Shown here: one piece after another, positions 2,077 to 57,941 of the stretch | Layout of the letters: each line of letters begins with the position of its first letter | How positions within the stretch are numbered: the first letter of the stretch is position 1 | Assembly: GCA_965261545.1 (NCBI GenBank) | Contig: CBDHDF010000010.1 | Location: forward strand, 160,001 to 224,000 | Direction: 5' to 3' | From: Bdellovibrionales bacterium | Lineage (GTDB): Bacteria; Bdellovibrionota; Bdellovibrionia; Bdellovibrionales; UBA1609 | Length of the DNA: 64,000 bases | Position numbers and translations under genes: made by a program | Notes under the pieces: model-generated | What the model saw: only the letters and a program-made list of their open reading frames with translations | The model's database searches: none | Told to the model about the DNA's origin: nothing

Positions 2077-3690
2077 CTAAGCATCGAAGCCTTTCTTAAT
2101 TTCTGCATTTATAAATATTTCTTTCTCAAAATATTGTTGAGTATTCACCCTGACCCTCACTTCTTGATTCTTCCGCATAAAAGAAACAACTTTCCCATCT
2201 GCACCCTTTCTTTTGATGTCCTCCCCCCTACCCAGCTTCATCGAGAATAAATCAAGATACCTTTTTGCAGCAACACCAATAAAATGTTTAAAAGCCACCT
2301 TGCCTTCATTACCCTCAGTAGAACCACCAGAAACAAATATAGCATCCCCATGTAATTCTTCAGAAAAACTTTTCGGATATGGTTCAACAAATAAAACTTC
2401 TTTGATTCCAGACTCTACAATATGTTTTGCACAATTATGACAAGGAAAGGTTGTGCAATATAAAGTTTTTCCCACAGGACTCACACCATTTCTCGCACAA
2501 CTTAAGATAGCTGCCATCTCTGCATGTGTAGCTCTCGCAAACTCAGTGATGTCGAACAAGCCACTTTTACGGAAAATATCTTTCATTTTTTCACTTGATA
2601 TTTCTTTCACCTCATCTTTTATTGCTTTCTCGATAATTTGACCTATCTTCTCACGCTTTTCCTGATTAGGGTCTTTTTCACGTCTATAATCCCTCCAGTC
2701 ATGAACACCCCCTTTCTTTATTACAGAAGGCCAATAGGGGCCACCACCAAACCTTGGAACATCATTGGATCCAAGACCCAAGATGTTTCCCCTTTCACTT
2801 GCAACAACAGCCCCTACTTGTCGAGACAAATCTGCTGTTCTTGTCGAATAGGCGTAGGCAATATACATCATATGCTCATCAATTGTAGGGGTAATATATG
2901 GATGACCAAACATTAAATCAAATATTCTCTCAAGTTGTATTTTTGTGGAAAATTCATCTTCATAGCTATGAGAAACAAATATATCTGACAGCTCAAACGC
3001 ACCTCTCGTTTGCTGACCTTTAGGGTCTTCTTCAGAAATATCTCTTTCAGTCAATATATATGCGTCCTCCTTTTTTATTCCTTCTTTATTGATTAAAAAA
3101 GAAATTCTCTGACTTTTAGAGGAAAATACGCCTATTTGATAGTAGGCATCTCCATATGTTCTACTCAATAACTTAGATTCATCTGGGTGTTTTATGGAAT
3201 CAAATATATAAGCCACACCGGTGGATAGATGCTCTTTGCTTTCGCTTTTATTTCTATCACCTAGATGTTCTTTTATCTCTTCTCTTTTTTCCTGAATCTG
3301 AATCACTGCATATTCAGACAAAAGGGAGCCTCGTTTCCTCCTAGCTTGTGTTCCTAATGTCATCTGACTGCTAATTTCATCGAATCGATTCGACGATTTA
3401 TCAACCTTTAATTTATTAGATTCTTCAGGGCTAAGATTGAGGATCTGTATAAAATTCTCATCCTCTAAGAAGTCACTAAACTTAAGAGTTTCAACTTTAT
3501 AGTTAAACTGGGACAATATATTTTTAATCTGGCCTTGAACAGATTTTAAATTTGAGCCAGTAGCCCCTACCAAGCCAATAAATAGCTCTGTTCTTTTTCC
3601 GTCTCCAGACTGTTCCCACTTAGTACTCATTCTTCCTCTCAATGACTTGTAGTCGTAAAAAGATAATATAGAGAGATTCTTGAGATGCAA
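2077..3690 (-). CDS. Anti-phage dCTP deaminase (N-terminal P-loop kinase-like domain plus deaminase; AvcD/Dcd-like)
   Basis: IGLVGATGS P-loop-like motif, RTADLSRQVGA, HAE and PCHNC Zn motifs, EPYPKS. True start probably the ATG of MSTKWEQ. Confidence 0.9.
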   Translation of the reverse strand: MHLKNLSILSFYDYKSLRGRMSTKWEQSGDGKRTELFIGLVGATGSNLKSVQGQIKNILSQFNYKVETLKFSDFLEDENFIQILNLSPEESNKLKVDKSSNRFDEISSQMTLGTQARRKRGSLLSEYAVIQIQEKREEIKEHLGDRNKSESKEHLSTGVAYIFDSIKHPDESKLLSRTYGDAYYQIGVFSSKSQRISFLINKEGIKKEDAYILTERDISEEDPKGQQTRGAFELSDIFVSHSYEDEFSTKIQLERIFDLMFGHPYITPTIDEHMMYIAYAYSTRTADLSRQVGAVVASERGNILGLGSNDVPRFGGGPYWPSVIKKGGVHDWRDYRREKDPNQEKREKIGQIIEKAIKDEVKEISSEKMKDIFRKSGLFDITEFARATHAEMAAILSCARNGVSPVGKTLYCTTFPCHNCAKHIVESGIKEVLFVEPYPKSFSEELHGDAIFVSGGSTEGNEGKVAFKHFIGVAAKRYLDLFSMKLGRGEDIKRKGADGKVVSFMRKNQEVRVRVNTQQYFEKEIFINAEIKKGFDA

Positions 3691-16296: not shown

Positions 16297-16855
16297 TGAC
16301 GCTATGCTAAGGGGAATCAGTCATGCCAATCAGTGCGGGCAATGCCATGGTTCGCCGGGCGAACTGAGATAAGATAGGGGGTTAGAGTCCCCCGAGAGGA
16401 AGGTCAACCGACCACTTCTCTCCCCAAGCCGTGCGCGGTCGGCCGTGAGGCCGAAGCGATGTATCGGTAGGGGTGTGTGTGGGCCAAATAATTGAGCGTC
16501 GAAAATGCCGAACTCTGGAGTGCGGAGGCTGTCATGGTAGCCGAACGCAACATACCCACCAGCGCTATGGTGAGTTGGTGGGTAACTCCACGGCGTCGTA
16601 GAAACTGGCACATACATGAATCTTATCTCGGGACCTCGGGAGGTCTTTATTTAACCCCGTCATGTGCGACGGGCGACATGGGAAAGGAGGTAACCGTAAC
16701 CCATGAACGAAATAAAGAAATCGGATCCACTCATAGTAGCGATGAAGAGGACGAACAAAGGGCCTACAAGCCCAGCGGAGTCCTTGGAGCGAAGGGGTGG
16801 AACTGAAGGGAACTCAATCCGTCAAAGCATCTGCCGAACACAGAGTTGGGAAAAG

Positions 16856-17067
16856 GTGTCACAGGCGACGGAGCGAGTCCGTATAGCAGCAAAGAGAAAG
16901 GATGGTAAGCTCACTTGCTTGCTTCACCATGTATCTGTGGAAGCCCTCCACTTGGCTTACCTCTATTTGAATAGGGGAGCCAGTGCGGGAGTGGACCATT
17001 TAACATGGAAGGAGTATGGCGAGAACCTCGTGCAAAACCTGTTCGATTTACATCGTCGGGTCCACAC
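16856..17067 (+). pseudogene. ltrA: Group II intron RT/maturase, N-terminal part
   Basis: SQATERVR..LLHH..A.GVD.LTW.EY..DLHRRVH. Interrupted at the AC core 17066-17067. Confidence 0.85.
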
Positions 17068-18682
17068 TACTCCCCGGACACAATGGCAAACTTTTGGAGG
17101 TTGGCACAACGTGTCGAACTACAATTTCACTTGCCTTAATGTTCACCTCAACCTCCTTCACCAGTAGCCTTACAATCTCCTTTTTTTGCTCAAAACTCAA
17201 TACCTTTAAATTGGCACTCACTTTTTTTTGGAATTCTTGGAGTTGATCTACAAGCTGTAGTTGTTGTCCTTCTTGCCTTTGCTCATACTCTAAAGATTGC
17301 TTTTCATTTTCAAGTTGCTTTATTTTTCCTCTTATTTTTTTTAATCGTGACTCTATTTCTGATAGATTTAGAGTTCCATTTTGATAAAGATCCAAGAGAC
17401 GTTCCTTTTCATGTGTTATTTGACGAATCTCCTGAGCCTTTTTTACAATTAATTTTTCCAATGATTGTTGTTCACCTTTTTGCTCATGAATTCTACTTGT
17501 ATACTCATCTATAACTGTCTGAGGATTTTCAAGTAATTTAACTGTTTGTTCCCAAACTAAGTCATCTAAAACTTCAACTCTTACGGGATGAGATGAGCAA
17601 ACTCTACCTTTAGCTGGCCACCTATAACCATCTTGTCCCATGCAGCGATAATAACAAAGCTTATACCTTGAGTGAGAAGCAGGTTTGCCATAGATCGAAT
17701 AACCACACTCTTTGCATCGTAAAAGACCACTTAACAAATACTCATATTTTTTATTATTCCGAGAGGAAAGTTTTTTGTTAGCTTCCAATTGGCTGGACGC
17801 ATCTTGAAAAGTTTTTGAAGAAATTATAGATGGAACGGGAATATATATCCAATCCTTTTTATTTCGATTGGAAGAACTTGATTTATGTTTTTTTGGATAA
17901 AAATTATTGTCTCTTGCGAACTTGGTTGGACGCAACCTTTCTACCTTGATAGTCTTTCTAAAAGCAGCTTGTCCATAATAAGCGGGATTTTTAAGCATAC
18001 ACAAGATAGTTGAACGCCCCCAAATACCTTGTTGTCTTCTAGTAGGCACCCCCCTTATATTTAATTCCTTTGCAATTGCTCTAATACTTAGTTTGTTTCG
18101 GCAATACATTTGAAAAATATTTTTAACAACTTTAGACTCTTCTGGATGGATTTCATATCGTGCGTCAGCGGAGTCTGTTTTCAGAATATATATATAACCA
18201 TAGGGGGCTCCACATAAAACGCTAACAAAGCCCTTAGAAGCCTTTTGAAGTTTACCCCTTCGACTTCTTTCCATAATTTTTTCTCTTTCATATTCTGAAA
18301 TGACTCCTTGTATTTGTAGCAAAAGCTGATCTTCGGGTGAATTTGTAATATCTCTATTAGAAAAAATAATTTCAACACCTAGCCTCTGAAATTCTTCAAT
18401 TAGAATCAATTGATGGGCATATTTACGAGCTAATCTGTCTGGACATAACACAAGTACCTTTGTAACCTCCCCAGAAAAAGCTTTGTCGCGAAGAGAGTCT
18501 AAAGCAGGACGAACAAGGGTGGCGCCACTCACACCATTATCCATAAATATAAGATCCTCCTCTACACAAAAATTGTGTTCCTTAGCGAAATCGTGAAGAC
18601 TAGAAATCTGTGAATCAATGGTTCCCTCTTGAGCTTGTTTATCTGAGGACACTCGACAATAAAGAGCTACTGATGTTTCCAT
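17048..18682 (-). CDS. Large serine recombinase (resolvase + recombinase + Zn ribbon + coiled coil)
   Basis: YCRVSS, DRLAR, E.ER..I.ER, PYGY and LRCKECG..YYRC motifs. GGAGG RBS. Confidence 0.93.
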   Translation of the reverse strand: METSVALYCRVSSDKQAQEGTIDSQISSLHDFAKEHNFCVEEDLIFMDNGVSGATLVRPALDSLRDKAFSGEVTKVLVLCPDRLARKYAHQLILIEEFQRLGVEIIFSNRDITNSPEDQLLLQIQGVISEYEREKIMERSRRGKLQKASKGFVSVLCGAPYGYIYILKTDSADARYEIHPEESKVVKNIFQMYCRNKLSIRAIAKELNIRGVPTRRQQGIWGRSTILCMLKNPAYYGQAAFRKTIKVERLRPTKFARDNNFYPKKHKSSSSNRNKKDWIYIPVPSIISSKTFQDASSQLEANKKLSSRNNKKYEYLLSGLLRCKECGYSIYGKPASHSRYKLCYYRCMGQDGYRWPAKGRVCSSHPVRVEVLDDLVWEQTVKLLENPQTVIDEYTSRIHEQKGEQQSLEKLIVKKAQEIRQITHEKERLLDLYQNGTLNLSEIESRLKKIRGKIKQLENEKQSLEYEQRQEGQQLQLVDQLQEFQKKVSANLKVLSFEQKKEIVRLLVKEVEVNIKASEIVVRHVVPTSKSLPLCPGSSVDPTM

Positions 18683-19007
18683 TTTTAACCTCCATTATTT
18701 TCTGTTGTTTTACTTTCTGCTTTAATTGTTTCTTTATTTTTGGAACAACAACTTCGTATGTCTGTTGAATCCGTGTGGTTTGGTCGCTTTGATAGACACT
18801 TTTTAGCTGAGCTGTCCATGGATTTTGATGTTTTGTTTGGTGGGCCATTATCATTCCTTTGACTATGGTTCGAAGCTAAATGGGAAGAATCCTCAGGTGG
18901 ATGCCAACGATAGTGAGCATATTTACGACCACTTGCATAAAGTGAATGATTATATATATTTATGGAAATTTCAATGGAAAAGTTGTCTATTGTGTCCGAG
19001 GAGTAAC
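17066..19007 (-). mobile_element. Minimal large-serine-recombinase element integrated in the RT gene
   Basis: 28-bp imperfect inverted repeats (17068-17095 and 18978-19005, 4 mismatches), each abutting a duplicated AC dinucleotide. Confidence 0.88.
18639..18854 (-). CDS. Small basic protein upstream of the recombinase, possible directionality factor
   Basis: AAGGA RBS, overlaps the recombinase start, only other gene in the element. Confidence 0.5.
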   Translation of the reverse strand: MIMAHQTKHQNPWTAQLKSVYQSDQTTRIQQTYEVVVPKIKKQLKQKVKQQKIMEVKNGNISSSLLSSVLR

Positions 19008-20127
19008 GGGTGCTTACAAAGGGCAACCTGTCTTGCGGGTAGAAATACCCAAGTCAGACGGGGGCACAAGACCCTTGGGTGTCCTGGCCTTGGAGGACAA
19101 GATTGTCCAGAAGGCCGTTGTAGACAGCATCCTCTCTCCCATCTACGAGGAACATTTCCTCGGTTATAGCTACGGATTCCGTCCAGGGCGTGGAGCGCAT
19201 AATGCGTTGGATGCTCTGGCTTACGGAATAGAGCGTAGAAAGATCAGCTACATATTGGATGCGGATATAAAATCCTACTTCGATAGCGTGGATAGAAAGA
19301 CTCTAATTCGCTTTCTAAAACACCTCATCGGAGATGAGAGACTCATTCGTCTCTTTGAAAAGTGGCTCAAGTGCGGAGTGCTATCTCAAGGCGTCTTAGA
19401 AGACACAGGGAGAGGGACCGTTCAAGGTTCAAATATTTCCCCTATCTTCGCCAACATATATTTACATTATGTGTTGGATTTATGGATGCAGAAATGGCGC
19501 AAGGACCATGCCACAGGGGACATGATATTTGTTCGCTACGCCGATGACTTTGTCGTAGGCTTTCAATACAAGGGGGAAGCTGAACGCTTCCTCAATGATC
19601 TGAAGCGCAGGCTTAAGGAGTTTTCTCTAGAAATACATCCGGGGAAAACTCGCCTCATAGAGTTCGGTCGATTTGCAAATGCAAATTGCCGCCGACGAGG
19701 TCTTGGTCACTCCGAGACTTTTGATTTCTTAGGATTCACTCACTTTTGTGTGCGCACGAGGAAAGGAGGCTTTAGGATAGGGCGTAAACCCATATCCAAG
19801 AGAGTCTGCCGGACCTTACAGCACCTGAAGCTGAGTCTGAGAAAACGAGTCTACACGAGGGACCTAGCGGAATGTGCAAAGTGGTTGGGTTTGGTCATCA
19901 AAGGCTGGCTCAATTATTTTGCGGTTCCAGGAAGTACGGTGTACCTACGAAAATTTATTTGCGCAATCAGGAGTGCTTGGATGAAAGCCATCCGACGACG
20001 CTCACAGCGTGGACGGAGATTCTCGTGGAAGAGGTTGGATAGAATGATTCGTCTATTCTGGCCTCGTATATCCATACGCCACCCGTGGCCAACAGATAGG
20101 TTCGCTATGCGGTACCACCTGAAGTAG
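19006..20127 (+). pseudogene. ltrA: Group II intron RT/maturase, C-terminal part (no endonuclease domain)
   Basis: IPK..G.TRPLG, SYGFRPGR, DADIK.YFD, QGS.ISP, RYADDF, FDFLGF, GW.NYF and terminal HPWP motifs. Confidence 0.92.
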
Positions 20128-20199
20128 GAGCCGGATGCTTTAACGAGCACGTCCGGATCTGTGCGGGGGGTGCGTGGCAACACGCATTCCTACCGTAAC

Positions 20200-20360
20200 C
20201 AACTGGTGCGGGCAATGCCATGCAACTGGTGAGGGTAATGCCATGCAACTGGTGCGGGCAATGCCATGCAACTGGTGAGGGTAATGCCATGCAACTGGTG
20301 CGGGTAATGCCATGCAATCGGTGCGGGTAATACCATGCAACTGGTGAGGGCAATGCCATG
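20200..20360. repeat. Seven tandem 23-bp repeats CAACTGGTG(C/A)GGG(C/T)AATGCCATG, eighth unit at 16327-16349
   Basis: Counted directly. No spacers. Lies adjacent to the IS21 TGT terminus. Confidence 0.93.
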
Positions 20361-20725
20361 CAATTTTACAATACTATCAGTTTAAGAAGAATCTACCCAC
20401 AAGATTGACTCTGCAAGTGCTTTGTATTGAACTTTTAAGGGATTGATGAAAATTTTAAGGCCTTAAACCGACAGTGTCGAGCTCAACCTATGACTAAATG
20501 CTGATTGAAGAGGGCACAAATTGACGCTGTGGGTATATAATCTACAGTATATCGTTAGCACACCCTTGATTGAAGTGAATCAGCATATGTCCAATATCTC
20601 GGGTTATAGACACCACCTCCTTTTCAAAAATTCTTAGGGTAGTATCAGTGGTGTCCTTCATGTATATCTGAGTGGCAACACACTGTACGAACTATGACAA
20701 TGGAGCCACCTAATCATTCTGGACT

Positions 20726-21550: not shown

Positions 21551-22714
21551 TTAGGGCTTTCCCTTAAAGTTACTCATACTCAAAACTCTGCCACTTGTAA
21601 TGCTATCCATCTGGGGCATGACATCAAGAACATCTGTTGCACCTTTGACTTCAACCCCTGCAAGCCTGACATAAATCTGAAAGGTCTTGATATCTCTCCA
21701 GCCACCGATTTTCATAACGGTGGCCTGATTGACTCCAGAGGCCAGCATGTGAGTGGCAAAGCAAGCTCTTAGTGAATGAAAGACGACATTGCTTTCAATG
21801 CCCAAGTCTTTCAAATACTGCCGCAGTATCTTACCAGCTTGACCATTCCTCCAAGCATAATGCCTTTCAAGAACAAGGTCTTCTGGAGTGGCGTTGTCCT
21901 TCCTAAGTTCCAAGATGACCGCTTTTAGGTCATTTGAAATAGGAACAGATCGCCAGTACCCAGCCTTCGTGCTTTTGATCGTGCGGCGAGCATCATTATA
22001 GGATTTTGATACGGTTATGATTCCTTTTTCGAGGTCAATGTCCTTCCACTGAAGGGCCATTAATTCTCCGCTTCTCATACCCGTACAAATAGCAAAAGCC
22101 CATGTGGGATACCAAGGGTTGTTGCTTGTTTTAGCCTGCTTAAGAAGCACCCTAAGCTCATCTTTTGTGAGAATCTTAGGGACCCTTTCTTCCTTAGTTC
22201 CTACAGTCAAACCTTCAGTGGGGCTTGAGTGAACACCTAAAGCGTATTTCTCCTCAATCGCCCATCTAAACACAACATTGACGGAAGATTTGATACTCCT
22301 TAAAAGACCAGTTCCAGCTCCCTGAGCCTTAGCTGAGTCTAAAGCCTGCCTTCCATCACCCTTGGTTAAATCAGAAACCCTACATTTCCACCAGATTTGT
22401 GTGTAATTTCTTAATCTGTTGACATGGGCTTGCACGATGGAGCGATCTAAGTATTTATCCCCAAGGTGTCCCGTCCGGGTTTTAATTTCCCATCGGTCCA
22501 CAATCTCACCCCAAGTGAGACCACGGCCTTCAAGTTTTGCCACTTCCTCAACAACGCTCTTAAAGAGCTTTTTTTCAAGCTTTAAGGCTTCTTTCAAAGT
22601 TGGAATGTTTTTCCTACTTCTCTGTAGCCTTAAAGTTGGACTTGCCTTCCCTCGTGCTTCAACATGAACACGAAAGAACTTTACTTCATTTTTCTTATAA
22701 CTACTTATGGCCAT
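21551..22714 (-). CDS. Tyrosine integrase, copy 2
   Basis: Protein identical to copy 1. 21372-22947 duplicates 1-1577. Confidence 0.93.
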   Translation of the reverse strand: MAISSYKKNEVKFFRVHVEARGKASPTLRLQRSRKNIPTLKEALKLEKKLFKSVVEEVAKLEGRGLTWGEIVDRWEIKTRTGHLGDKYLDRSIVQAHVNRLRNYTQIWWKCRVSDLTKGDGRQALDSAKAQGAGTGLLRSIKSSVNVVFRWAIEEKYALGVHSSPTEGLTVGTKEERVPKILTKDELRVLLKQAKTSNNPWYPTWAFAICTGMRSGELMALQWKDIDLEKGIITVSKSYNDARRTIKSTKAGYWRSVPISNDLKAVILELRKDNATPEDLVLERHYAWRNGQAGKILRQYLKDLGIESNVVFHSLRACFATHMLASGVNQATVMKIGGWRDIKTFQIYVRLAGVEVKGATDVLDVMPQMDSITSGRVLSMSNFKGKP

Positions 22715-22978
22715 TATAAACCTCCTTAAATGCTGAGGTTTCAATAAGGACGCAAAGCTTATCTTTTCTGAAGTAAAATTTCCCTCGAAACTGCCTTGCT
22801 CTTAGAAGTCCTCTATGAGCGAGAATCCTAATCGCATTGGCACTTTTCCGAAGGTATTAAGCAGCTTCTTCTGTTGTTAACCAAACTAAATTGTCAAAGA
22901 GCATATCAGAGTCGCACATTTTGTGATGAACACTCTGACCACTGCCACACCTTTCGTCCTGACAGCTATCTATAGTCA
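22714..22978 (-). pseudogene. Excisionase pseudogene, copy 2
   Basis: Same TAA lesion as copy 1. 5' end diverged, boundary approximate. Confidence 0.7.
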
Positions 22979-26903: not shown

Positions 26904-28067
26904 TTAGGGCTTTTCCTTAAAGTTACTCATACTCAAAACTCTGCCACTTGTAATGCTATCCATCTGGGGCATGACATCAAGAACATCTGTTGCACCTTTG
27001 ACTTCAACCCCTGCAAGCCTGACATAAATCTGAAAGGTCTTGATATCTCTCCAGCCACCGATTTTCATAACGGTGGCCTGATTGACTCCAGAGGCCAGCA
27101 TGTGAGTGGCAAAGCAAGCTCTTAGTGAATGAAAGACGACATTGCTTTCAATGCCCAAGTCTTTCAAATACTGCCGCAGTATCTTACCAGCTTGACCATT
27201 CCTCCAAGCATAATGCCTTTCAAGAACAAGGTCTTCTGGAGTGGCGTTGTCCTTCCTAAGTTCCAAGATGACCGCTTTTAGGTCATTTGAAATAGGAACA
27301 GATCGCCAGTACCCAGCCTTAGTGCTTTTGATCGTGCGGCGAGCATCATTATAGGATTTTGATACGGTTATGATTCCTTTTTCGAGGTCAATGTCCTTCC
27401 ACTGAAGGGCCATTAATTCTCCGCTTCTCATACCCGTACAAATAGCAAAAGCCCATGTGGGATACCAAGGGTTGTTGCTTGTTTTAGCCTGCTTAAGAAG
27501 CACCCTAAGCTCATCTTTTGTGAGAATCTTAGGGACCCTTTCTTCCTTAGTTCCTACAGTCAAACCTTCAGTGGGGCTTGAGTGAACACCTAAAGCGTAT
27601 TTCTCCTCAATCGCCCATCTAAACACAACATTGACGGAAGATTTGATACTCCTTAAAAGACCAGTTCCAGCTCCCTGAGCCTTAGCTGAGTCTAAAACCT
27701 GCCTTCCATCACCCTTGGTTAAATCAGAAACCCTACATTTCCACCAGATTTGTGTGTAATTTCTTAATCTGTTGACATGGGCTTGCACGATGGAGCGATC
27801 TAAGTATTTATCCCCAAGGTGTCCCGTCCGGGTTTTAATTTCCCATCGGTCCACAATCTCACCCCAAGTGAGACCACGGCCTTCAAGTTTTGCCACTTCC
27901 TCAACAACGCTCTTAAAGAGCTTTTTTTCAAGCTTTAAGGCTTCTTTCAAAGTTGGAATGTTTTTCCTACTTCTCTGTAGCCTTAAAGTTGGACTTGCCT
28001 TCCCTCGTGCTTCAACATGAACACGAAAGAACTTTACTTCATTTTTCTTATAACTACTTATGGCCAT
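26904..28067 (-). CDS. Tyrosine integrase, copy 3
   Basis: Two amino-acid differences from copies 1 and 2. Confidence 0.93.
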   Translation of the reverse strand: MAISSYKKNEVKFFRVHVEARGKASPTLRLQRSRKNIPTLKEALKLEKKLFKSVVEEVAKLEGRGLTWGEIVDRWEIKTRTGHLGDKYLDRSIVQAHVNRLRNYTQIWWKCRVSDLTKGDGRQVLDSAKAQGAGTGLLRSIKSSVNVVFRWAIEEKYALGVHSSPTEGLTVGTKEERVPKILTKDELRVLLKQAKTSNNPWYPTWAFAICTGMRSGELMALQWKDIDLEKGIITVSKSYNDARRTIKSTKAGYWRSVPISNDLKAVILELRKDNATPEDLVLERHYAWRNGQAGKILRQYLKDLGIESNVVFHSLRACFATHMLASGVNQATVMKIGGWRDIKTFQIYVRLAGVEVKGATDVLDVMPQMDSITSGRVLSMSNFKEKP

Positions 28068-28329
28068 TATAAACCTCCTTAAATGCTGAGGTTTCAATAA
28101 GGACGCAAAGCTTATCTTTTCTGAAGTAAAATTTCCCTCGAAACTGCCTTGCTCTTAGAAGTTCTCTATGAGCGAGAATCCTAATCGCATTGGCACTTTT
28201 CCGAAGGTATTAAGCAGCTTCTTCTGTTGTTAACCAAACTAAATTGTCAAAGAGCATATCAGAGTTGCAATATTTCATGACTACACCCTGACCCCTGCCG
28301 TCTTTCTGCTGACAGTTGTCTGTAACCAT
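28067..28329 (-). pseudogene. Excisionase pseudogene, copy 3
   Basis: Same in-frame TAA as copies 1 and 2. Confidence 0.75.
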
Positions 28330-28799: not shown

Positions 28800-29520
28800 C
28801 TAAGCATCGAAGCCTTTCTTAATTTCTGCATTTATAAATATTTCTTTACCAAGATATTGTTGAGCCTCCACCTTGACCCTCACTTCTTGATTCTTCCGCC
28901 TTTTTTATTCCTTCTTTATTGATTAAAAAAGAAATTCTCTGATTTTCAGAGGAAAATACGCCTATTTGATAGTAGGCATCTCCATATGTTCTACTCAATA
29001 ACTTAGATTCATCTGGGTGTTTTATGGAATTAAATATATAAGCCACACCGGTGGATAGATGCTCTTTGCTTTCACCTTTATTTCTATCACCTAGATGTTC
29101 TTTTATCTCTTCTCTTTTTTCCTGAATCTGAATCACTGCATATTCAGACAGAAGGGAGCCTCGTTTCCTCCTAGCTTGTGTTCCTAATGTCATCTGACTG
29201 CTAATTTCATCGAATCGATTCGACGACTTATCGACCTTAAATTTATTAGATTCTTCAGGGCTAAGATTGAGGATCTGTATAAAATTCTCATCCTCTAAGA
29301 AGTCACTAAACTTAAGAGTTTCAACTTTATAGTTAAACTGGGACAATATATTTTTAATCTGGCCTTGAACAGATTTTAAATTTAAGCCAGTAGCCCCTAT
29401 CAAGCCAATAAATAGCTCTGTTCTTTCTCCGTCTCTAGACTGTTCCCACTTAGTACTCATTCTTCCTCTCAATGACTTGTAGTCGTAAAAAGATAATATA
29501 GAGAGATTCTTGAGATGCAA
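28800..29520 (-). pseudogene. dCTP deaminase copy with about 0.89-kb internal deletion of the catalytic domain
   Basis: The junction near 28899 joins the equivalents of about 3070 and 2178 in the intact gene. Confidence 0.88.
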
Positions 29521-29587
29521 GCTCTATTTTATCATCAGAGGGCACCAATTTGTGACCTTTGCAGGCCCTTAGTTATCTAAATTTTAC

Positions 29588-31302
29588 GTAACTATTCAGG
29601 GGGTGCTGCATTAATTCGAACAATTTTTTTAAAAAAAGTATAAAAATTCTTGACAAGTTTTTGAAGCAAACGACCTCTTTCATTTGTTCTTTATCGAATA
29701 TGTTCCTGCATATGCCTTAAACTCTCTGAGAGCCATAGTATTGAAAGATTGTGAAACATAGGTCGCAGGGGGCACTTCTCATTCCTTTTGCTTCTTAGAA
29801 CGAATCCTAGTGCATTTTTTTTAATGAAAAAAAGGCATGTTAATATTTTCATAAGGTAAGTATGAAAATAGAAAATATTGACGTGTCTTCAGCCATAAAT
29901 AAAATCAGGAAGCTTCTTAAGAAAGAGAAGTCCCTTTCTCCCGCTTTTATTGTGGCCATTGAGTTGTTGATCAAAATCATCACTATTCTAGTAAATCAAA
30001 AAAAATTAAATAGTCAAAACAGTAGTATTGCCCCTTCTCAAGATCCGAATGGCCCTAAAAAGAAACCTAAGGAAGAAACTGGTAAGAAGCCAGGAGGACA
30101 ACCCGGACACGAAGGAGCTACTTTAAAACCCGTGGATACTCCAGACAAGGTGGAGTTCATTTCTATTAATAAAGAGGAACTTCCTCCAGGTGATTACATT
30201 TCTTCTGGAGTTGAAAAGCGTCAAGTATTTGAGGTAGACCTTTCTGTGCATGTCACGGAGTATCAAGGAGAAATCCTCGAAGACCAAGATGGGAATCAGT
30301 GGGTTGCAGGTTTTCCAGAAGGAATCAATAACCCAACTCAATATGGCCCTTCTGTGAAAGCTCACTCAGTTTATATGTCCCAGTTTCAGTTAATCCCTCA
30401 TCTTCGAGTCGCAAGTTACTTTAATCAATGGGGTCTATCGCTTGCTGGATCTACGGTACACAATTTTAACAAATCTGCCTTTGAGGCTCTGGAAGCTTTT
30501 GAGGAGTGGGCAAAGGAAACTCTTCTGAACTCACCTTTGATTCATGCTGACGAAACTGGAGTGAATGTTAATGGGAAGAGGCTGTGGTTTCACCTCTTGT
30601 CCAATGATACTGTGGTTCTCTATCAGGTGGACGAAAAAAGAGGCGCAGAGGCTATGGATCGCATGGGAATTCTTCCAAAATACACAGGGATTGTTTGTCA
30701 TGACCATTGGAAACCTTATTATACATATACTTCCTGCATTCATGCCCTTTGCAATGCGCACCATTTAAGGGAGCTTCAAAGAGCTTGGGAGCAAGATGAT
30801 CAAAAATGGGCAAAAGAAATGAAGTCTCTTTTAGAGACAATAAACAAAGAGGTGCACGATACGCAGAACCAATGCCTTTCACAAGACCGAATTGAATATT
30901 ACAAAGAGAAATATCGAAATATTCTCTTCGAAGGGGAAAAGGAATCTCCATTAATGGAGAGGACAGAGAAAAAAAAGAAGGGAAAGGTTAAACAATCCAA
31001 ATCTAGAAATTTACTAGATCGACTGAGAAACTTTGAAGATGATACCTTGCTCTTTATGAAGGACCCCATAGTTCCATTTACGAATAATATAGCAGAAAAT
31101 GATCTGAGAATGACCAAAGTTCAGCAGAAAATATCTGGGTGCTTTCGTTCGTTGATGGGAGCCAAGACATTTTGTAGAAACCGAAGCTTTCTCCTGACTT
31201 GCCAGAAAAATGGCATAGAACCTAAAGATGCTCTAAATATGCTATTTCAAGGAAAACTTCCCTCATTTATGACTCGAATTCGCCCACCCCCTGAATAGTT
31301 AC
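29588..31302 (+). mobile_element. IS66-family (single-ORF, ISBst12-like) insertion sequence
   Basis: 18-bp perfect TIR GTAACTATTCAGGGGGTG. Confidence 0.9.
29862..31298 (+). CDS. IS66-family transposase
   Basis: NS.NSS.APSQD, GGQPGH.G, HADET, CNAHHLREL and PFTNN.AE.DLR motifs. Confidence 0.92.
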   Translation: MKIENIDVSSAINKIRKLLKKEKSLSPAFIVAIELLIKIITILVNQKKLNSQNSSIAPSQDPNGPKKKPKEETGKKPGGQPGHEGATLKPVDTPDKVEFISINKEELPPGDYISSGVEKRQVFEVDLSVHVTEYQGEILEDQDGNQWVAGFPEGINNPTQYGPSVKAHSVYMSQFQLIPHLRVASYFNQWGLSLAGSTVHNFNKSAFEALEAFEEWAKETLLNSPLIHADETGVNVNGKRLWFHLLSNDTVVLYQVDEKRGAEAMDRMGILPKYTGIVCHDHWKPYYTYTSCIHALCNAHHLRELQRAWEQDDQKWAKEMKSLLETINKEVHDTQNQCLSQDRIEYYKEKYRNILFEGEKESPLMERTEKKKKGKVKQSKSRNLLDRLRNFEDDTLLFMKDPIVPFTNNIAENDLRMTKVQQKISGCFRSLMGAKTFCRNRSFLLTCQKNGIEPKDALNMLFQGKLPSFMTRIRPPPE

Positions 31303-31390
31303 TATGAATCTCCGGGGTAGTTTGGACGCACGAATCCACTATCCGTTCTTCGAATTTTTTCAAATGTCCGAGTTTTTAAATCATCCTACA

Positions 31391-32591
31391 TTACATGAAA
31401 TCATACTTTTTTAACGCTCTAATCCACCTTGGTGCATTTTTTTTCACCATGAGCTTTTCATAGTCAATTCCAGGGTCTTTGTAGGGGGTGTCATTACTTA
31501 TGACTGAATAAACAACTCCCATCATTTTGTGACCAACGGCAATCACTGATCTCTTGTGCCCACGCCTTATAACAAGTGATTGGTATTTGCCTTTGAATTG
31601 TGAATTCGTCTTAATAGCACTATTGGCCATCTCACATACCAACGATTTCACATATGTGTTCGCTTTCCTCGTTCGTGAAGACTTTTTTTCCTGCGCTCTC
31701 ATTATTGGATGGGCAAATCCCCATCCAGGAGCAAAAATTTCCTTTATTTTTAAAAGACTTCACATTGCCTCCTATTTCTGCAATCAAAAGCGCTGCACTT
31801 AATTCGTCAATTCCAGGTATAGTCTGGAGTAGATGCCACTGCCTTTCATAGGGTTTCATACGAATGAAAAGTTCTTCTTCAATTTGAGAGCATTCTTTTT
31901 TCAAAAAATCTATTCGATCAAGAATGCGTTGAAGAACAAAACGATTTTCTTCCGTCATCTTTCCCGACAGGGCGTAAGAAAATTCTTCGGTCTTTTGACG
32001 TAAAGACCCTCTGGCAAGAGACATCAATTTAGAAACTGATCTCTCTCCATTAGCTATGGCACGAATCATGGCCATACCAGATACGCAGTCAGCTTTAGAC
32101 ATTGCATAGGTTAAACGAATGCCTGAATATTCAAGAACCTTATACATACGATTTTGTTCCGAAGATATTTGGCGGATCGTTTTTGTACGATAACGAGCCA
32201 AAAGTCTAATAGAACGAATCTCACGTGGAGGAATGAAGCTAGCTCTTAGAAGACCACAAGCACCAAGCTCTGCAATCCACTGGCTATCCAACACGTCAGT
32301 TTTTTTACCAGTAATATTTTTGACATGAAAGGCATTGATAACATCTACTTCATAACCTTTTTCTGTCAAATCATCGTATAAAGAATTCCAATAAATCCCT
32401 GTGCTCTCAAAAAGAACTCTCTCAACCTTATGTGGCTTCATCCAAGAGCGCATTCTAGGAAAATTTTTTGGAAAATTCTTGAACTCTTTTGTGAAAAACT
32501 TCTTCTTACCGTCTTCCACTTTGACAATCGTACACATCAACATATGTTGATGAACATCTATTCCACAAACAGAACTATAAATAATATCCAC
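31391..32591 (-). pseudogene. IS110-family DEDD recombinase, frameshifted in an A-run near 31685
   Basis: GIDVH, ESTG.YW, KTD..D, L.TIPGI and ESAGK motifs. C-terminus continues in 31391-31702. Confidence 0.9.
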
Positions 32592-32619
32592 ATGACTCCT
32601 CCTTTCTGTTAGAAAAAAA

Positions 32620-32806
32620 GAAGGTGATAAAACTAGAGCCTTGGGATTTTGCCATAAATTCTAAAGCGAAAATAGGTCAACTTACTATACGTCCATACAC
32701 TCAGAGTGCAGGTACATGCGTGGGTTCGATCCAAAGCTCAAGACCATGTTACTTCACGGAATTAAAATTACCAATCTATTCAACGGCCACTCATCTTATC
32801 ACCTTC
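32620..32806 (-). ncRNA. Candidate IS110 bridge RNA
   Basis: Non-coding left end closed by an 11-bp stem (GAAGGTGATAA/TTATCACCTTC) with an inner stem (GAGCCTTGGGAT/ATCCAAAGCTC). Confidence 0.6.
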
Positions 32807-33092
32807 CAATAATGTTATTGCTTTATCCTTTATTGTATCGGAATCATACATGACAAAAATACCATCAAAAGTCCAGAGTAACTAAAAGAGGCCAATTATA
32901 TAGACCAGCGAAGCTGTCCACCGAGTTGCTTCGTGCAAAGAAGTGGGGGCCTAGATAAGATTCATGGGCGTGGGTGGGGAAGCAAGGCGCCCCCATGAAT
33001 GTTACAATTTTACTTCAATATAGCAGCAATTTGCTATTCTTTTTTAAGGGTCTCTGAGGGGGCACTTCTCTGTTTTATTGCTAGGAGTCGAT

Positions 33093-33686
33093 TCATACAA
33101 CGATAGACTCCCAATATTTTTCGAGAATTTTGCTCATCTTGAGATTGTCAGCCATCCGACCTAGTTGAGCTAGCGTCGTTAAGTTTTCTTCCAGAGCCAA
33201 CCTTGTTGCTTGGATAGCTATTCTTGGCCCAATTTTAGAAGAAAATTTTAAAGATTCAATCAATGTGCGTTCAATATTTGTGATTCTAAAATATTTCTTT
33301 TCATGAATGCCATAACTAAGTGTTGTGGTTGTCCTCAGACATTTGAACTGTCCCATAGAAGTTTGATCTTTCCTGGACGGTGGGATAATAACCCATATCT
33401 GTTGGGGAGCTTGGTCGATGAGCCCATAGTAAAACAGAGCGGAAAGACCTCCGATAACTGCTTGAGCTCCAAAGTGTGTACAAGTTATGGCAAAGTCCAA
33501 TTCTTCCGGTTTTATGGAAGATTTTGGGTGCATATAAAGTCCCCTGGATACTCGCTTGATAGAGCCATTGGAGACCCAACGGGACAAGGTAGCCCATGAA
33601 ATATTAGCCACCTTCTGAGCTTCTTTTGAGCAGAAGATTCCCAGTGGTTTTAGTTTGTTATATCGTTGAGAATCGACCTTCTTCAC
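33093..33686 (-). CDS. AbiEi-like type IV TA antitoxin / wHTH regulator, no AbiEii partner
   Basis: G.IKRVSRGLY wHTH, LSAL.YYGL..Q.P and TNIERTLIE motifs. Confidence 0.85.
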   Translation of the reverse strand: MKKVDSQRYNKLKPLGIFCSKEAQKVANISWATLSRWVSNGSIKRVSRGLYMHPKSSIKPEELDFAITCTHFGAQAVIGGLSALFYYGLIDQAPQQIWVIIPPSRKDQTSMGQFKCLRTTTTLSYGIHEKKYFRITNIERTLIESLKFSSKIGPRIAIQATRLALEENLTTLAQLGRMADNLKMSKILEKYWESIVV

Positions 33687-34013
33687 ACTGTCATCTTTGG
33701 ATAAAGAAAGACAAAAGTCAATGAAAATGTCTTATTTTGTTCATGGCTAGAGAGCCCGGGACAGAAGATTTCAGATAGTATCCAATTACTAGGGAGCCGG
33801 ATGTGCACTGTTCACCCAAAAGGCAAAAAATGAGGGATGACTATGGCACATAAAATCTGTAGGAAAGGGCGTGGTAAGGAGTGTCATATCAATACAATTC
33901 TAAATTACCGCAGGTGTAAAAGTGGTTTGATTCCCTTGCATGACGCAGATTTCCAAAATAACTCAACGACTATCTCAACTCTAATATATGACACAAGCAA
34001 AGTAGTTCTTAAG

Positions 34014-34241
34014 CTATTTTTCTAAAAGTTTATTACTGAAAGAGGACTTGGCCCAATCTGGAAGATCTAATTTGATAGAGTCAAAATGTCGATCTTGATT
34101 TTCCATAACTGTAAAGAAGTTTGCCTCTGCCTGGCTCTCACCTTTTCTTGCTTTGTTTTTTTGAATTTTTCTACACATTTCTTTGAACAATTTAAAGCTC
34201 TTTTCTTCTTTTTCTTTTATTTCATTTACACTTAGACTCAC
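34014..34241 (-). CDS. Small protein with LPDWAK motif downstream of the second deaminase
   Basis: GGAGG RBS, GTG start, 27 bp after the deaminase stop. Confidence 0.6.
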   Translation of the reverse strand: MSLSVNEIKEKEEKSFKLFKEMCRKIQKNKARKGESQAEANFFTVMENQDRHFDSIKLDLPDWAKSSFSNKLLEK

Positions 34242-34268
34242 ATTACACCTCCCAGTAAGCCTTTACGA

Positions 34269-35158
34269 TCATTTAGTATTCTCAAAAATTTCCTGCCGAG
34301 ATTCAACAAATTTAATCGACTTTATTCTGAGTTTTTCCCTTGGTTCAGCCTGTGCCTTCTTGGCTTCAAAGTCGATCTTAAAACCTTTGTGGTGCCTCGT
34401 TATCTCGCGCCCGGAACTCAATGTCAATGAGAATAAATCAAAGAACCTCCTAGGACCAACACCAATAAATGGCTCAAAAAATAATCTATTTTTTTCATTT
34501 TTATTTTTTGTGATGGAATCATCATGTAACTCATCTGCTAGGCTCTTAGGGTAAGGCTCAATATAGACAACTCTTGAGATACCTGCTGCAACTATGTGTT
34601 TAGCACAATTGTGACAAGGATAGGTTGTACTAAATAATGAAGCACCTCTTAATCTAATTCCTAAGCGACTGGCTGACAAGAGGGCTGCCATTTCAGCATG
34701 AACAGCTCTTCCATATTCTGTTATATCTTTAAGTTCGCTATTTTTAATCTCATTCATTATAATATCTATTAAATTATTCTCTGTACTTTCGGATTTCTCA
34801 TATTTATCTGAAAAGGTTTGAAACGTATCGTTAGAGGTAATCTTTTTAGAAATATTATTCAAGATTTTTTCCATTTGATGCTTGTTTGATTCATACATTT
34901 ATAATGTAATCTCTTTGGTCTCCATTCTGACCTGAGTCATCGGACCAATATTGTCCTCCCCCAAATTTGGGCACATCGTTTGCCCCCTGGCTAATAATAT
35001 CACCTTCTGATGTCGTAATAACAGAGCCTACTTGACGAGATAAATCTGCAGATCTTAAAGACGCTGCATAAGCTTGAAACATAGCATATTCATCTCTACT
35101 AGGTGTGTGGTAAGGGTGTCCAAATATCAGATCTATAAATCGTGACAATTCTTTTTTG
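34269..35158 (-). pseudogene. Second, divergent anti-phage dCTP deaminase (frameshift near 34895, 5' end removed at IS66)
   Basis: RSADLSRQVG, EYGRAVHAE, PCHNCAKHIV and EPYPKS motifs. Confidence 0.88.
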
Positions 35159-38040: not shown

Positions 38041-38188
38041 AGGTAGGGTGAGCCCATCTTGTCAGATTACCCTAAATGGCCTGGTTTAACCCGCCCATCA
38101 GGGATAGATTGAACTCGATTCGCTTTGAGTGGTTCACCTTTTGAAACCTCCAGCTTTGCTGGAGGGGCATTCACTAATGGAGGCTTAT

Positions 38189-39169
38189 ATGGTAAATGTC
38201 TATGATTCTTTTTTAAATTATAAAGGAAATATTGCTAACCTTTGTCAATTTGAATGCATGAGAAAAGGCAAGGAAGTATTCTTAGTAAATACTAATACTA
38301 ATATGGACGTTAAATCAAAACAAATACAGGCGAAAATGGATGCATATGATCTAAAAAATAAATTAAATTCTTTTCCTTATCGACAAAATGATAAACTTGA
38401 GAAAATTGATATAATTAAGGCCAATCTTATACAGAACTTTCAAACAAATTCAAAGCACTGGAATATATTTATGCCAAAAAGTTTGGATCATATAAAATAT
38501 TTGACTGAGCTTTTTAAAGAAAAAAACTTCTTAAAAGGTCGGCCATGGGGCCCTGAAATGTCTATGGTTTTTAAAGATATGAATTCTAATGATACTACAG
38601 ATACGTCTAAATTAGTTTTTACGAATAAGGTTTATCTTTATGTTGATTTAATATTGAATACAAATACAAAAAATGCTCTTAAAGTTATAGGAGAAGAAAA
38701 AAAATTAACTTTACAAGTGAGAGACAAGAAATATTTTGATAATCTTAAAATAGATGTATTTATTTGTCATGATAGTCGGGATAAGCCTCCATTTGCTAAA
38801 AATTTAGCAAAGGAATTACAAAAAGTAGATCTTAAAGTATGGTATGATGATTTTTCTTTAGAAATCGGTGATGGCCTCATAGAGTCTATTCAAAAAGCTT
38901 TAAGCGACTCAAAAAAATGTATCTTAATAATTTCTCAAAATTTTCTTAATAATAACGGGTGGGTAAAAAAAGAGTTCACTGCTATATCGACTCGTGAAAC
39001 AAAGAAAAAAGAAGAGGTTATTCTTCCAATATGGCATGGGGTTAATGCTAATGAGGTTTATGAATACAGCCCTTTCCTAGCCGACAAATATGCTATTGAT
39101 TCATCAAAAATGAATATTAAAGAGATTGCTAATGAAATTTCAAACCAGATAAAAAAATGTGAGCTCTAA
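38189..39169 (+). CDS. TIR-domain protein (C-terminal TIR, unknown N-terminal domain), probable defence gene
   Basis: DVFICH...DK, VWYD, W...E catalytic Glu, ILPIWH. GGAGG RBS before ATG 38189. Confidence 0.88.
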   Translation: MVNVYDSFLNYKGNIANLCQFECMRKGKEVFLVNTNTNMDVKSKQIQAKMDAYDLKNKLNSFPYRQNDKLEKIDIIKANLIQNFQTNSKHWNIFMPKSLDHIKYLTELFKEKNFLKGRPWGPEMSMVFKDMNSNDTTDTSKLVFTNKVYLYVDLILNTNTKNALKVIGEEKKLTLQVRDKKYFDNLKIDVFICHDSRDKPPFAKNLAKELQKVDLKVWYDDFSLEIGDGLIESIQKALSDSKKCILIISQNFLNNNGWVKKEFTAISTRETKKKEEVILPIWHGVNANEVYEYSPFLADKYAIDSSKMNIKEIANEISNQIKKCEL

Positions 39170-39414
39170 ACCGATATAAAGAGATACTTTTTCAAAATAT
39201 CTGTAAATTGGCTATAAACTTGCCACAAGAGATGTTTCCAAGAAAATAATGCATAGCATTAATAGTGCTCCCTGGAAAAACCTCCCATAGCGGATTACAA
39301 ACCTTTTTACATCCAGTCAGAACTCACAGCGGTTCTACCGGGTCATCAAAGGAGGAATGCTAGAAGACTCCCACAGTGGTGTGCCTATCTCAAGCAGTGA
39401 ACCTATAATCAGAG

Positions 39415-39486
39415 GAGCCTAATGCGTGATTTGCGCGCGTTGGTTTCTGGGAGGGAGAAGGGGGGAAACCTCCTTCCCTACTCGAC
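39415..39486 (+). other. Degenerate group II intron domain V-VI remnant
   Basis: GAGCCTAATGCG..CGCGTTGGTTTC followed by a GAAA-loop hairpin ending CTACTCGAC. Confidence 0.65.
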
Positions 39487-39508
39487 TATATCTCGGACAA
39501 AAGAGGGA

Positions 39509-40789
39509 TTATTTTAATAATTCTTTAGAAATTTTAAAAACAAGTTCAGCATTAACAGCATTACCAAGTGCTTTATAAGATGCGGTTGGTGTTCCAGGTA
39601 GATATTTTAAATTCTCCATACTTTGTAAGCGACTGCATTCACGTGGTGTCATATATCTTTCTTCCCAAGAAATAATAGGAACCTGAGTAGTTGTCATGGC
39701 AACTAAAGAAGGGGCTGTAATAGGCCTTTTTATACGAACCCCAGACGCTCGAAATTGAATAATATAATTTTTGACATCTCTTTCTTCGCCTTTGCAGTTC
39801 CATTCAAACTTTTGAAGGCTTTGGGGATATTTTTTTATTTTTGAGATCCATGGATGAATCCACTTCTTATTTCTTGAATAATATTCTCTGTTCTTATAAA
39901 TAAATTTCTGCTTCCATGGTGGAAATATGTTGTTCACTCCTCGAGCATAAGATGGTATATGTTTTAGTATGTCATGACGGTAGTAATAGCTATTGAGCTT
40001 ATGTCCAAAGGCTCCTTTACAACTCTTGAGTTCCTTCAAAGGAGCTTCATAGAGGGAATCATACCCTTCATATGGATAAGTAGCACCAAACTCCATTGTC
40101 CATATCGGAAATGAGGGGAGTTCCTCATCTTTTGGAGATAAGCTTAGAAATTCCTGCCAGACACTTAAGCACTCTTTGGTTTGGTGATTTAATGGTTGGG
40201 CATTTGGAGGGTTCTTATCTAAAATTGAAATAATATTCGGCTTCTGGATTTTAGATTCATTTGGCCAGAAAAAATGCTTTAAACCATATTGACTTCCCAC
40301 AATAAAAAGCCTTTCTCTTATTTGTGGTATATTAAATTTATGGGGAGACAAAATTTTGGTATCAACACTATACCCCTCCTTCTCAAGTTGTTTTTTCATG
40401 AGTAACCATGTTTTTCCGCCGTTATGCTTTTCTAGATTTGCAACATTTTCCATAATAAAAAAATTTGGTCTATGATACTTAATTATGCGTAAAACATGTT
40501 TTGAGAATAGGTCCCCCCATAACCTGCATTTAGTTCCAAGCTGTTCTCCTGCCTTTGAAAAGGGCTGACACGGAAATCCCGCACACAAAATATCATGAGG
40601 TGGAATATTGTTAGCATGAATCGAACGAATATCTCCACCTGGTCTTAAACCAAAATTCCTCTCATAAATTTCGACAAGCTCCTCATTTACTTCGCTTGAA
40701 AAAACACATTTATGGCCTAACTTTTTTAAGGCTAAGTGGAACCCCCCTAAACCAGAAAATAAATCAATAAATCTCAAAGATTTTGACAT
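39509..40789 (-). CDS. dcm: DNA (cytosine-5) methyltransferase
   Basis: DLFSGLGG, GFPCQ, ENV, PQ.RER and GNAV motifs. Confidence 0.95.
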   Translation of the reverse strand: MSKSLRFIDLFSGLGGFHLALKKLGHKCVFSSEVNEELVEIYERNFGLRPGGDIRSIHANNIPPHDILCAGFPCQPFSKAGEQLGTKCRLWGDLFSKHVLRIIKYHRPNFFIMENVANLEKHNGGKTWLLMKKQLEKEGYSVDTKILSPHKFNIPQIRERLFIVGSQYGLKHFFWPNESKIQKPNIISILDKNPPNAQPLNHQTKECLSVWQEFLSLSPKDEELPSFPIWTMEFGATYPYEGYDSLYEAPLKELKSCKGAFGHKLNSYYYRHDILKHIPSYARGVNNIFPPWKQKFIYKNREYYSRNKKWIHPWISKIKKYPQSLQKFEWNCKGEERDVKNYIIQFRASGVRIKRPITAPSLVAMTTTQVPIISWEERYMTPRECSRLQSMENLKYLPGTPTASYKALGNAVNAELVFKISKELLK

Positions 40790-42963: not shown

Positions 42964-42979
42964 ATTATATACCTCTTAC

Positions 42980-48598: not shown

Positions 48599-48977
48599 AG
48601 TGAATTTGATTCGTTAAAGTTTTGAATTGTTCCAAAGCTAAATCCAAAGTGTCACTCCATCCATGCATGAGACCGGAATTTAGTCGTCTGGCGACTTGAT
48701 TAAGATTATTTCCAATTCTATTCAAATCTTTTCTCAAAACAGCTAAATCATCTTTGTTCATCAGCACCTTCGTTGAAGGTTTGTCGAAGTAAGATTCCCG
48801 TAAAAGCTCAGGGATAGACTTGCCAGATGTCTTGCTGTCTTTTTGAATCCGACTATATTCAGAGGGAGACAGTCGCACACAGCTGGCACCACCTTTGATT
48901 ACTTTTGTTATGTTATTTTGACTCATTTGATCTCCTTTGTTTGTTAGTTTGAGAATTGTGTTTTCGCTTTTTTTCAT
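48567..48977 (-). CDS. mobC: Relaxosome accessory protein MobC
   Basis: RHH N-terminus and LNRIGNNLNQVARRLN signature. Confidence 0.92.
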   Translation of the reverse strand: MKKSENTILKLTNKGDQMSQNNITKVIKGGASCVRLSPSEYSRIQKDSKTSGKSIPELLRESYFDKPSTKVLMNKDDLAVLRKDLNRIGNNLNQVARRLNSGLMHGWSDTLDLALEQFKTLTNQIHYGYGYGIHKN

Positions 48978-49084
48978 ATTTTTTTGTCACATCTTTTTTT
49001 TTGGTTTTGTTACTTTTATTTTCTTTGTTTGTTACTTATTTTTTTCTGTTTGAGTTAGTTGTATTTTTTAGTCATTTAGGGTCG

Positions 49085-49240
49085 TTTTTTTACATGCAAG
49101 TATGGTTTCAGATATCTGAACCCCAAAAAAGCTCCTGCGGAGCAGGGGGACTGCGCCCCTTTTTTGCTTGTTGAGGGCAAGCCCCCAAACCCCCTTGATG
49201 ACTGCTTCGCAGTCCCAAGGTGCTCGCTTCGCTCGCCTTT
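49085..49240 (-). promoter_or_regulatory. Candidate oriT
   Basis: ATACTTGC nic-like motif (minus strand, about 49096-49103) upstream of mobC, beside a cluster of GC-rich hairpins. Confidence 0.5.
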
Positions 49241-49268
49241 TCCCGATGTATTTTCGTCCCTCTCTGGC

Positions 49269-50762: not shown

Positions 50763-50763
50763 A

Positions 50764-52251: not shown

Positions 52252-52263
52252 TTTTCTCTCCTT

Positions 52264-52707: not shown

Positions 52708-52753
52708 ATTGACCTCCTATCTATTTAGGTTGTGTTATCGTTTGTTGGTTTTC

Positions 52754-57939: not shown

Positions 57940-57941
57940 GG

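Follow-up and report, generated by a model that had tools for sequence, protein, structure and literature searches.

We describe a mobile element of 1,940 bp in a 64,000-nucleotide stretch of a Bdellovibrionales bacterium (assembly GCA_965261545.1, contig CBDHDF010000010.1, positions 160,001 to 224,000 of the forward strand). This whole stretch is called the window, and coordinates count from its first letter unless another contig is named. The element interrupts the reverse transcriptase (RT) gene of a group II intron and encodes a large serine recombinase (LSR) together with a conserved open reading frame (ORF) of 71 aa. It is probably a minimal selfish element moved by its LSR, from a family in which different lineages target conserved coding motifs within other mobile elements. 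Underlying this account are observations of its anatomy, of empty alleles, of six target sites in one genome, of targeting within the family and of selection on a tail of the recombinase gene.

Anatomy of the element and its host intron

17068 to 19007, unstranded: mobile element, variant A, 1,940 bp; GC content mostly 32-42% inside versus 44-59% in the intron
17066 to 17067, unstranded: crossover core AC, 2 bp, left copy
19006 to 19007, unstranded: crossover core AC, 2 bp, right copy
17068 to 17095, unstranded: left inverted arm (half-site of attP, the attachment site of the element), which doubles as LSR codons ~530-539
18978 to 19005, unstranded: right inverted arm (attP half-site)
17048 to 18682, reverse strand: LSR, 544 aa when integrated, with 539 codons to the core and 5 from the opposite strand of the RT; catalytic S12 invariant
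18639 to 18854, reverse strand: conserved 71-aa ORF overlapping the LSR start; candidate recombination directionality factor (RDF)
18685 to 19005, reverse strand: start-less open frame of 106 codons, the first ~35 (18898-19005) conserved; in the LSR frame only across the circle junction

The inverted arms of the element, 28 bp each, are complementary at 24/28 positions, a value never matched in 917 random internal 60-nt pairs, among which the top was 19. The 2-bp core lies at both junctions, and a precise empty site is present in the same genome, as expected of an LSR integrative element. When the element is removed in silico, an RT of 494 aa with a single stop is obtained, and the same ORF is encoded by four natural empty intron copies of this genome. 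Because these natural copies carry the same ORF, the element boundary is independent of the in silico join. Furthermore, the joint from 17065 to 19006 was seen in contigs of the source sample (one sample, probably the genome's own and thus not independent). An assembly artefact was rejected, given several identical copies, the natural empties and the contig support. Collectively, these results agree with the first-pass annotation of this DNA, which had described an excisable-looking LSR element with 28-bp inverted ends and a duplicated AC splitting an intron RT, had predicted an uninterrupted RT upon removal and had proposed a search for the empty target site (attB), found here in the four empty intron copies. 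Sequence comparison thus supports the view that precise excision would restore the RT.

Within the element, an ATG at 18946 shares the frame of the 3' RT part and opens a 393-aa ORF (18946-20127, forward strand) that lacks the first 121 RT residues; a promoter-like match of 9/12 for this ORF at 18825-18854 is probably due to chance. A functional short RT from this ATG was rejected, since the first 121 residues are absent and there is no evidence of use.

16350 to 20199, forward strand: group II intron, 1,910 nt empty and 3,850 nt when it holds the element, flanked by 23-bp repeat units in the terminus of an element like the insertion sequence (IS) IS21
16703 to 17067, forward strand: RT/maturase ORF, 5' part, codons 1-122
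19008 to 20127, forward strand: RT ORF, 3' part (RVT_1, YADD, maturase domain), with the PQG-type target of the family near 19420-19445, unoccupied
16326 to 16349, forward strand: first 23-bp IS21-end repeat unit, upstream of the intron
20200 to 20372, forward strand: the other seven 23-bp repeat units and the IS21-like terminus

Ribozyme domains D1-D6 surround the RT ORF of the host, a group II intron for which precise empty target sites exist. Rfam places a D1D4-6 match at 16384-16605, and the D5/D6 hairpins reach z=-4.0. The RT is split at codon 122, and the PQG motif of the same RT (~19420), about 145 codons past this site, is unoccupied. The element sits in the ORF loop of the intron and the ribozyme domains are intact, which makes hitch-hiking within the intron possible; to this extent, the corresponding suggestion of the first-pass annotation stands. 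The intron itself is found in different 23-bp units at IS21-like ends, sometimes in tandem, so that three mobile elements are nested.

Target sites within the genome and across the family

Two variants of the element are present in this genome. Variant A, that of the window, fills five intron copies, all at the same site, and four intron copies are empty. In a sixth copy, broken by an IS, the right junction of variant A lies in the intron and the left junction at an unrelated AC-core site, an IS end. Variant B is 97% identical to the window's variant A in nucleotides and 95% in amino acids. Its junctions lie in three other RT genes, all at the motif PQG-x-x-x-SP, and each of these genes also has empty alleles. 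The target sites of A and B in this one genome thus number six, namely, four RT genes, an IS end and a gene that we take, from its motifs, to be hydantoinase-like. Two B copies (C10:794990-793051; C7:146915-151831) have flanks swapped between one RT gene and the hydantoinase-like gene, from which it follows that a non-RT target and recombination between copies both occur. This reciprocal exchange also marks a chromosome rearrangement through the element.

These sites bear on the proposal of the first-pass annotation that the element gates RT production, as a regulated skin-like switch whose excision is programmed to turn on the intron RT. Precise excision would restore the 494-aa RT, and a candidate directionality factor is present. 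However, the gene is already supplied by four intact copies, the same lineage lies in all six sites listed above, the window's site is not conserved (0/33 of the close loci defined below) and sister clades disrupt transposases. Given the intact sisters, the unconserved site and the other genes hit by the lineage, the switch reading fails, and we regard it as highly improbable.

Up to the core, 28 amino acids distinguish the recombinase of A from that of B, and 21/28 of these lie in residues 160-360, the DNA-binding domains (binomial p=1e-4), versus 8/18 synonymous changes in the same residues (Fisher p=0.06 against the amino acid changes). The ratio of non-synonymous to synonymous change (pN/pS) between the two is 0.39. 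Judged from sequence, this substitution pattern fits either retargeting or early decay.

Regarding the spread of A among introns, repeated integration and hitch-hiking are nearly even. For an intron single-nucleotide polymorphism (SNP) at 16628, each of the four combinations with a filled or an empty intron is found, which requires a second gain, a loss or gene conversion. Moreover, the five full A copies differ by 1 SNP in ~9.7 kb, whereas the corresponding intron parts (~8.5 kb) show 4 SNPs and 2 indels, a weak difference. Both observations lean toward repeated integration. In contrast, A is never found at the canonical site despite empty GT-core sites in the RT genes RT2 and RT3, which leans toward hitch-hiking. 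A rival account, to which we give somewhat less than an even chance, goes further: a single off-target insertion brought variant A into the intron, and the composite of 3.85 kb has since spread by retrohoming with a sister RT while the recombinase decays. The absence of A from canonical sites speaks for this account, and the SNP combinations and, weakly, the greater likeness of the A copies speak against it. It gains from the filled introns, which point to separate entries at three or more places (unit 5, and unit 1 in each of two IS21 array types), and from the intact ribozyme domains, and it is weakened by the additional A junction at the unrelated AC-core site. The A branch is longer than that of B (0.036 versus 0.006 in a quick tree) and conserved residues are lost, as decay would have it; however, the LSR ORF is intact, pN/pS for A versus B is 0.39, and the excess of changes in residues 160-360 over synonymous ones also fits retargeting.

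More than 4,000 proteins match the recombinase, and 91 loci outside this genome were examined, divided into a close set of 33 loci with at least 50% LSR identity and a distant set of 58 loci. The GTDB scan, with a single protein query, returned 8 loci; part of the close-locus assignments comes from upstream hidden Markov model hits and flank text only. At E<=1e-40, 0/60 related genomes gave a match. Sixteen of the 33 close loci abut an RT at the PQG-x-x-x-SP motif, in both orientations, and none (0/33) lies at the window's site, codon 122. The core is formed by the opening two bases of the codon that precedes S-P, and it differs between targets (AT, CT, GT); it agrees on both sides in 14/18 two-ended close elements, A and B counted. 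Copies on rhizobial plasmids are annotated RT5'-RHH-LSR-RT3', where RHH denotes ribbon-helix-helix. Of the distant loci, 11 occupy this RT motif, and in 2 others an RT is split at a point that is less well placed; a further 7 lie at one IS110 transposase motif (5 with Pfam support), 6 at one IS5 transposase motif (2 with Pfam support) and 1 in IS66, and the remainder are unassigned. The cores of distant clades are our own selection: among the matching cores by which the target frame is restored, the outermost was taken. On the tree, IS110 loci and IS5 loci belong to separate clades (SH-aLRT, an approximate likelihood-ratio test, 100), and RT targeting appears in several clades (quick tree, no bootstrap). 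The empty alleles and the family targeting bear out the first-pass view of a parasite of group II intron RT genes, moved by an LSR with a 2-bp core. Its further claim, that a conserved RT segment is targeted, which it proposed to test by asking whether homologues split RT genes at the same codon, holds for the PQG motif, at which the 16 close loci break at one codon, but not for amino acid 122, a different codon outside that motif.

Alternatively, the element could be a promiscuous LSR transposon whose RT matches mirror intron abundance only. Such a reading accommodates the off-target sites in this genome, the flank read-through fusions to transposase and Rep genes among the protein hits, and the 11/33 close loci at other or unclear sites. 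It is largely refuted by the insertion break, for which diverged RTs share a single codon position even between clades whose LSRs are 40-95% identical. Furthermore, the attP arm agrees with the codon-fixed target bases of G-G-V and S-P at +2/+3/+5/+6/+8, and target type clusters on the tree (24 changes versus a shuffled mean of 37, a contrast inflated by near-copies). We consider promiscuity quite improbable and retain targeting of coding motifs. The atypical site of the window contains a 6-of-7 match to a motif of the attP arm, 4 bp nearer the core, and this displacement would accord with the 4-5-bp shift expected for attB. Within the family, a subclade (L029-L033, 50-57% identity) has a common non-RT target with an AT core, which a DUF772 transposase adjoins in L031.

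The split recombinase gene and the proposed cycle

The LSR consists of an N-terminal catalytic domain with its serine, a recombinase domain and a zinc ribbon with a coiled coil; the Pfam matches (Resolvase, Recombinase, Zn-ribbon) all lie on the integrated part. The gene has no stop within the element, and its homologues are conserved to the core and then run into unrelated tails read from the target. At the opposite end, the start-less frame sets out from the core; across the predicted circle junction, it continues the LSR frame in 18/18 close elements, where it stays open for 38-107 codons. In the window, the predicted circle-form ORF would span 645 aa and 1,938 of the 1,940 bp. The first 35 tail codons are conserved as protein. 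Beyond the arm, 66% of single-base codon differences in this frame are synonymous, with 0 stops, versus 8-37% and 11-39 stops in the other five frames. Similarly, pN/pS of the tail is 0.35 over 9 independent pairs versus 0.66-1.68 in other frames, and the entropy by codon position beyond the arm is 0.96/0.68/1.38, third positions being the most variable. From these sequence comparisons, the tail frame is under purifying selection, and it is probably translated as part of the recombinase. The first-pass annotation named two genes, the LSR and the 71-aa ORF, and missed this third conserved coding piece (18898-19005, reverse strand).

A leader conserved because of a role at the DNA or RNA level, such as a promoter or a binding site, or for an independent peptide rather than a recombinase tail, appears improbable. 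In favor of this reading are a sigma-70-like match of 9/12 at 18974-18946 (reverse strand), which is weak because the scan found 10 such matches versus 5.6 expected, and the lack of a fused LSR-tail protein on record. However, variation concentrates at third codon positions, and no start codon is shared among the 18 elements, ATG/GTG/TTG occurring in 4/18 and at differing codons. In addition, database matches to the tail peptide have unrelated N-termini read from the flanks, and in distant clades the phase is unchanged but the peptide is another.

Close and distant clades alike conserve the 71-aa ORF, for whose family Pfam returned nothing meaningful. A complex model of the 71-aa protein with LSR residues 150-540 scored 0.75 versus 0.47 for the best control, with contact agreement of at least 67% and a partner pLDDT (a per-residue model confidence) of at least 62; this pass mark was reached by 116/157 solved pairs and 2/215 mismatched pairs. 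The modelled interface comprises strand 518-528 of the LSR and the base of the coiled coil. In the passages of PMC12286644 that treat them, verified RDFs are predicted at the junction of the second DNA-binding domain (DBD2) and the coiled coil, mostly adding a beta strand. Based on the model, the 71-aa protein is a candidate to bind the surface of the LSR at which RDFs dock, and we favor, with some reserve, a function as a directionality factor. In another clade (L055, L056, L071, L102, L103), a different small gene occurs together with a longer leader (~575 bp in L055, L056 and L071); in the two plasmid records of this clade, the small gene is annotated as CopG-family RHH.

Collectively, these features suggest a cycle. 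The integrated, tail-less LSR would excise the element with the 71-aa factor as a 1,940-bp circle, whose junction would join the LSR gene to the conserved C-terminal tail from the other end. The tailed, circle-form enzyme would then integrate at a new attP-like motif with a compatible 2-bp core. Variant A would occupy a secondary RT site, where inactivation of the RT would be a side effect, since intact sister introns remain. A part of the tail in directionality is conceivable at slightly less than an even chance. A bolder version, which we think unlikely as a whole, pictures radiating two-gene hyperparasites, each clade reading one coding motif (group II RT, IS110, IS5). Only the circle would encode the 645-aa recombinase, whose beta-strand tail would occupy the docking site of the 71-aa factor and lock the enzyme in integration mode, and the window variant would be midway in retargeting through ~20 changes in its DNA-binding domains.

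Several observations weigh against the reading of a mobile, motif-targeting element with a tailed circle form. The circle junction, for which the first-pass annotation had also proposed a search, was found 0 times in the assembly, and the listed joints of one sample's 4 contig sets did not include it, although contigs drop rare forms; a degenerate circle-junction pattern matched 46 viral-contig stretches, 0 of them with LSR similarity. No natural LSR-plus-tail protein appeared among the 120 top homologues, 37 profile hits (29 read) and 30 hits to longer proteins. In distant clades, the tail signal is weaker (0.61 versus 0.70 for the best other frame), and the four differences between A and B in the first 36 tail codons are all non-synonymous. 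The complex model may owe its pass to likeness to solved integrase-RDF complexes. Variant A is without the family consensus residues W227, R342, G201 and E222, and its recombinase may be in decay. The junctions of variant B have GT on the left, and their right sides are not all clean 2-bp duplications. Finally, the other 17/33 close loci comprise 2 that are motif-like without an RT match, 5 at another shared site, 6 elsewhere or unclear and 4 without a flank.

An unrelated LSR element of 2.45 kb lies elsewhere in the genome (C10:13210-15660); its 681-aa LSR is 23% identical to that of the window. Approximately six near-identical further copies (C11, C10, C7, C3, C6) accompany it. It is inserted in the ISNCY transposase just past the DST motif of that gene, a site of which 46 empty copies exist. 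This genome therefore holds another LSR element that independently parasitises a mobile element. The window itself is a conjugative region riddled with IS copies; at 2077-3690, 28846-34898, 38129-44542 and 46958-63931, it carries relaxase-, TraC- and TraB-like genes together with defence-like genes. The latter comprise an intact anti-phage dCTP deaminase, a second copy of which is broken by IS66/IS110, as well as a protein with a TIR domain and Dcm accompanied by a Z1-domain protein. Tyrosine recombinase genes stand alone at four places (181-1374, 21551-22744, 26904-28097, 44837-45982), and their near identity (381-397 aa) suggests a multi-copy tyrosine-recombinase element.

Relation to known systems and significance

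The window LSR has the same domain order and fold as the phage-type serine integrases with RDFs (SPbeta SprA/SprB, phiC31, Bxb1, LI/A118), and its best Foldseek hits are serine integrase complexes (E 1e-20). Shared features are the 2-bp core and the inverted arms of attP; the model also places a small partner at the DBD2-coiled-coil junction, where it would add a beta strand. In contrast, identity to these integrases is only 14-19%, and the window element has no phage and no cargo, is multi-copy with variable cores and several targets, and carries attP inside the 3' end of its integrase gene. Instead of the single attB per host of the phage type, A and B have six different target sites. For SPbeta, the portion of bioRxiv 2025.01.03.631226 concerned describes the extreme C-terminus as part of the directionality toggle.

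The clostridial transposons Tn4451/Tn4453 (TnpX), Tn5397 (TndX) and Tn6104 are likewise moved by an LSR; they carry mobilisation and accessory genes, whereas the window element has two genes in 1.94 kb. We know of no RDF requirement in these transposons and of no targeting of RT or transposase motifs by them. The excerpt of PMC3158075 describes LSR movement via a circle with a 2-bp core for Tn6104 and TnpX, and insertion of Tn6104-6106 into another mobile element. Closer in gene layout is DsiB of the Dehalococcoides ssrA islands, described in part of PMC3146451 as an LSR of ~540 aa whose 3' end overlaps att and has a variable tail. The authors, in the same part, suggested that it is perhaps fully functional only on the circle, an idea put forward without a selection test. 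DsiB differs in that its islands are large and use the single-copy ssrA; in the window element, the tail from the far end is under codon-level selection.

Suicidal tyrosine integrases of the SSV type (SSV1, pTN3, pT26-2), as outlined in the relevant section of PMC7253208, also have the recombination site in the integrase ORF, so that integration splits the gene. The att site of the window LSR likewise lies inside its ORF. However, the SSV-type enzymes are archaeal tyrosine recombinases split into two inactive pieces, whereas the window enzyme is a bacterial serine recombinase that keeps its three Pfam domains and loses only the tail. Like the window element, skin, SPbeta and nifD-type elements interrupt a coding gene. 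Excision restores the gene in these elements. For an LSR element, interruption and restoration are described in a passage of PMC5025042. The skin-type target is a single-copy developmental host gene at a conserved site; that of the window is a multi-copy selfish gene with four intact sister copies, at a site found in 0/33 close loci, and there is no sign of programmed excision. Finally, most members of the multi-targeting LSR clade of Durrant et al. (PMC10083194) have DUF4368, which is absent from the Pfam hits of the window LSR; the comparison of interest is with A and B together, which hit four RT genes, the hydantoinase-like gene and the IS end.

Full-text literature, a coverage that leaves subscription journals and bioRxiv supplements outside, contained no description of LSR elements that target intron RT genes, and this literature together with two LSR/integrase surveys contained none of RT- or transposase-motif targeting. 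The words 'reverse transcriptase' and 'maturase' are absent from the main text and 8 supplement files of Durrant 2022 and from the main text of PMC12884075.

The 35-residue tail and the candidate RDF make the idea from the DsiB paper, that an LSR is complete only on the circle, testable in a 1.94-kb system. Moreover, this one genome contains two recombinases that are 95% identical but differ in their target sets, and it also has the matching empty sites. Such a natural pair could be used to map LSR specificity, a matter of importance for genome-engineering tools. If the present reading is true, it explains some of the RT and transposase genes annotated in two halves, and group II introns and IS elements have a specific enemy that could limit their spread.

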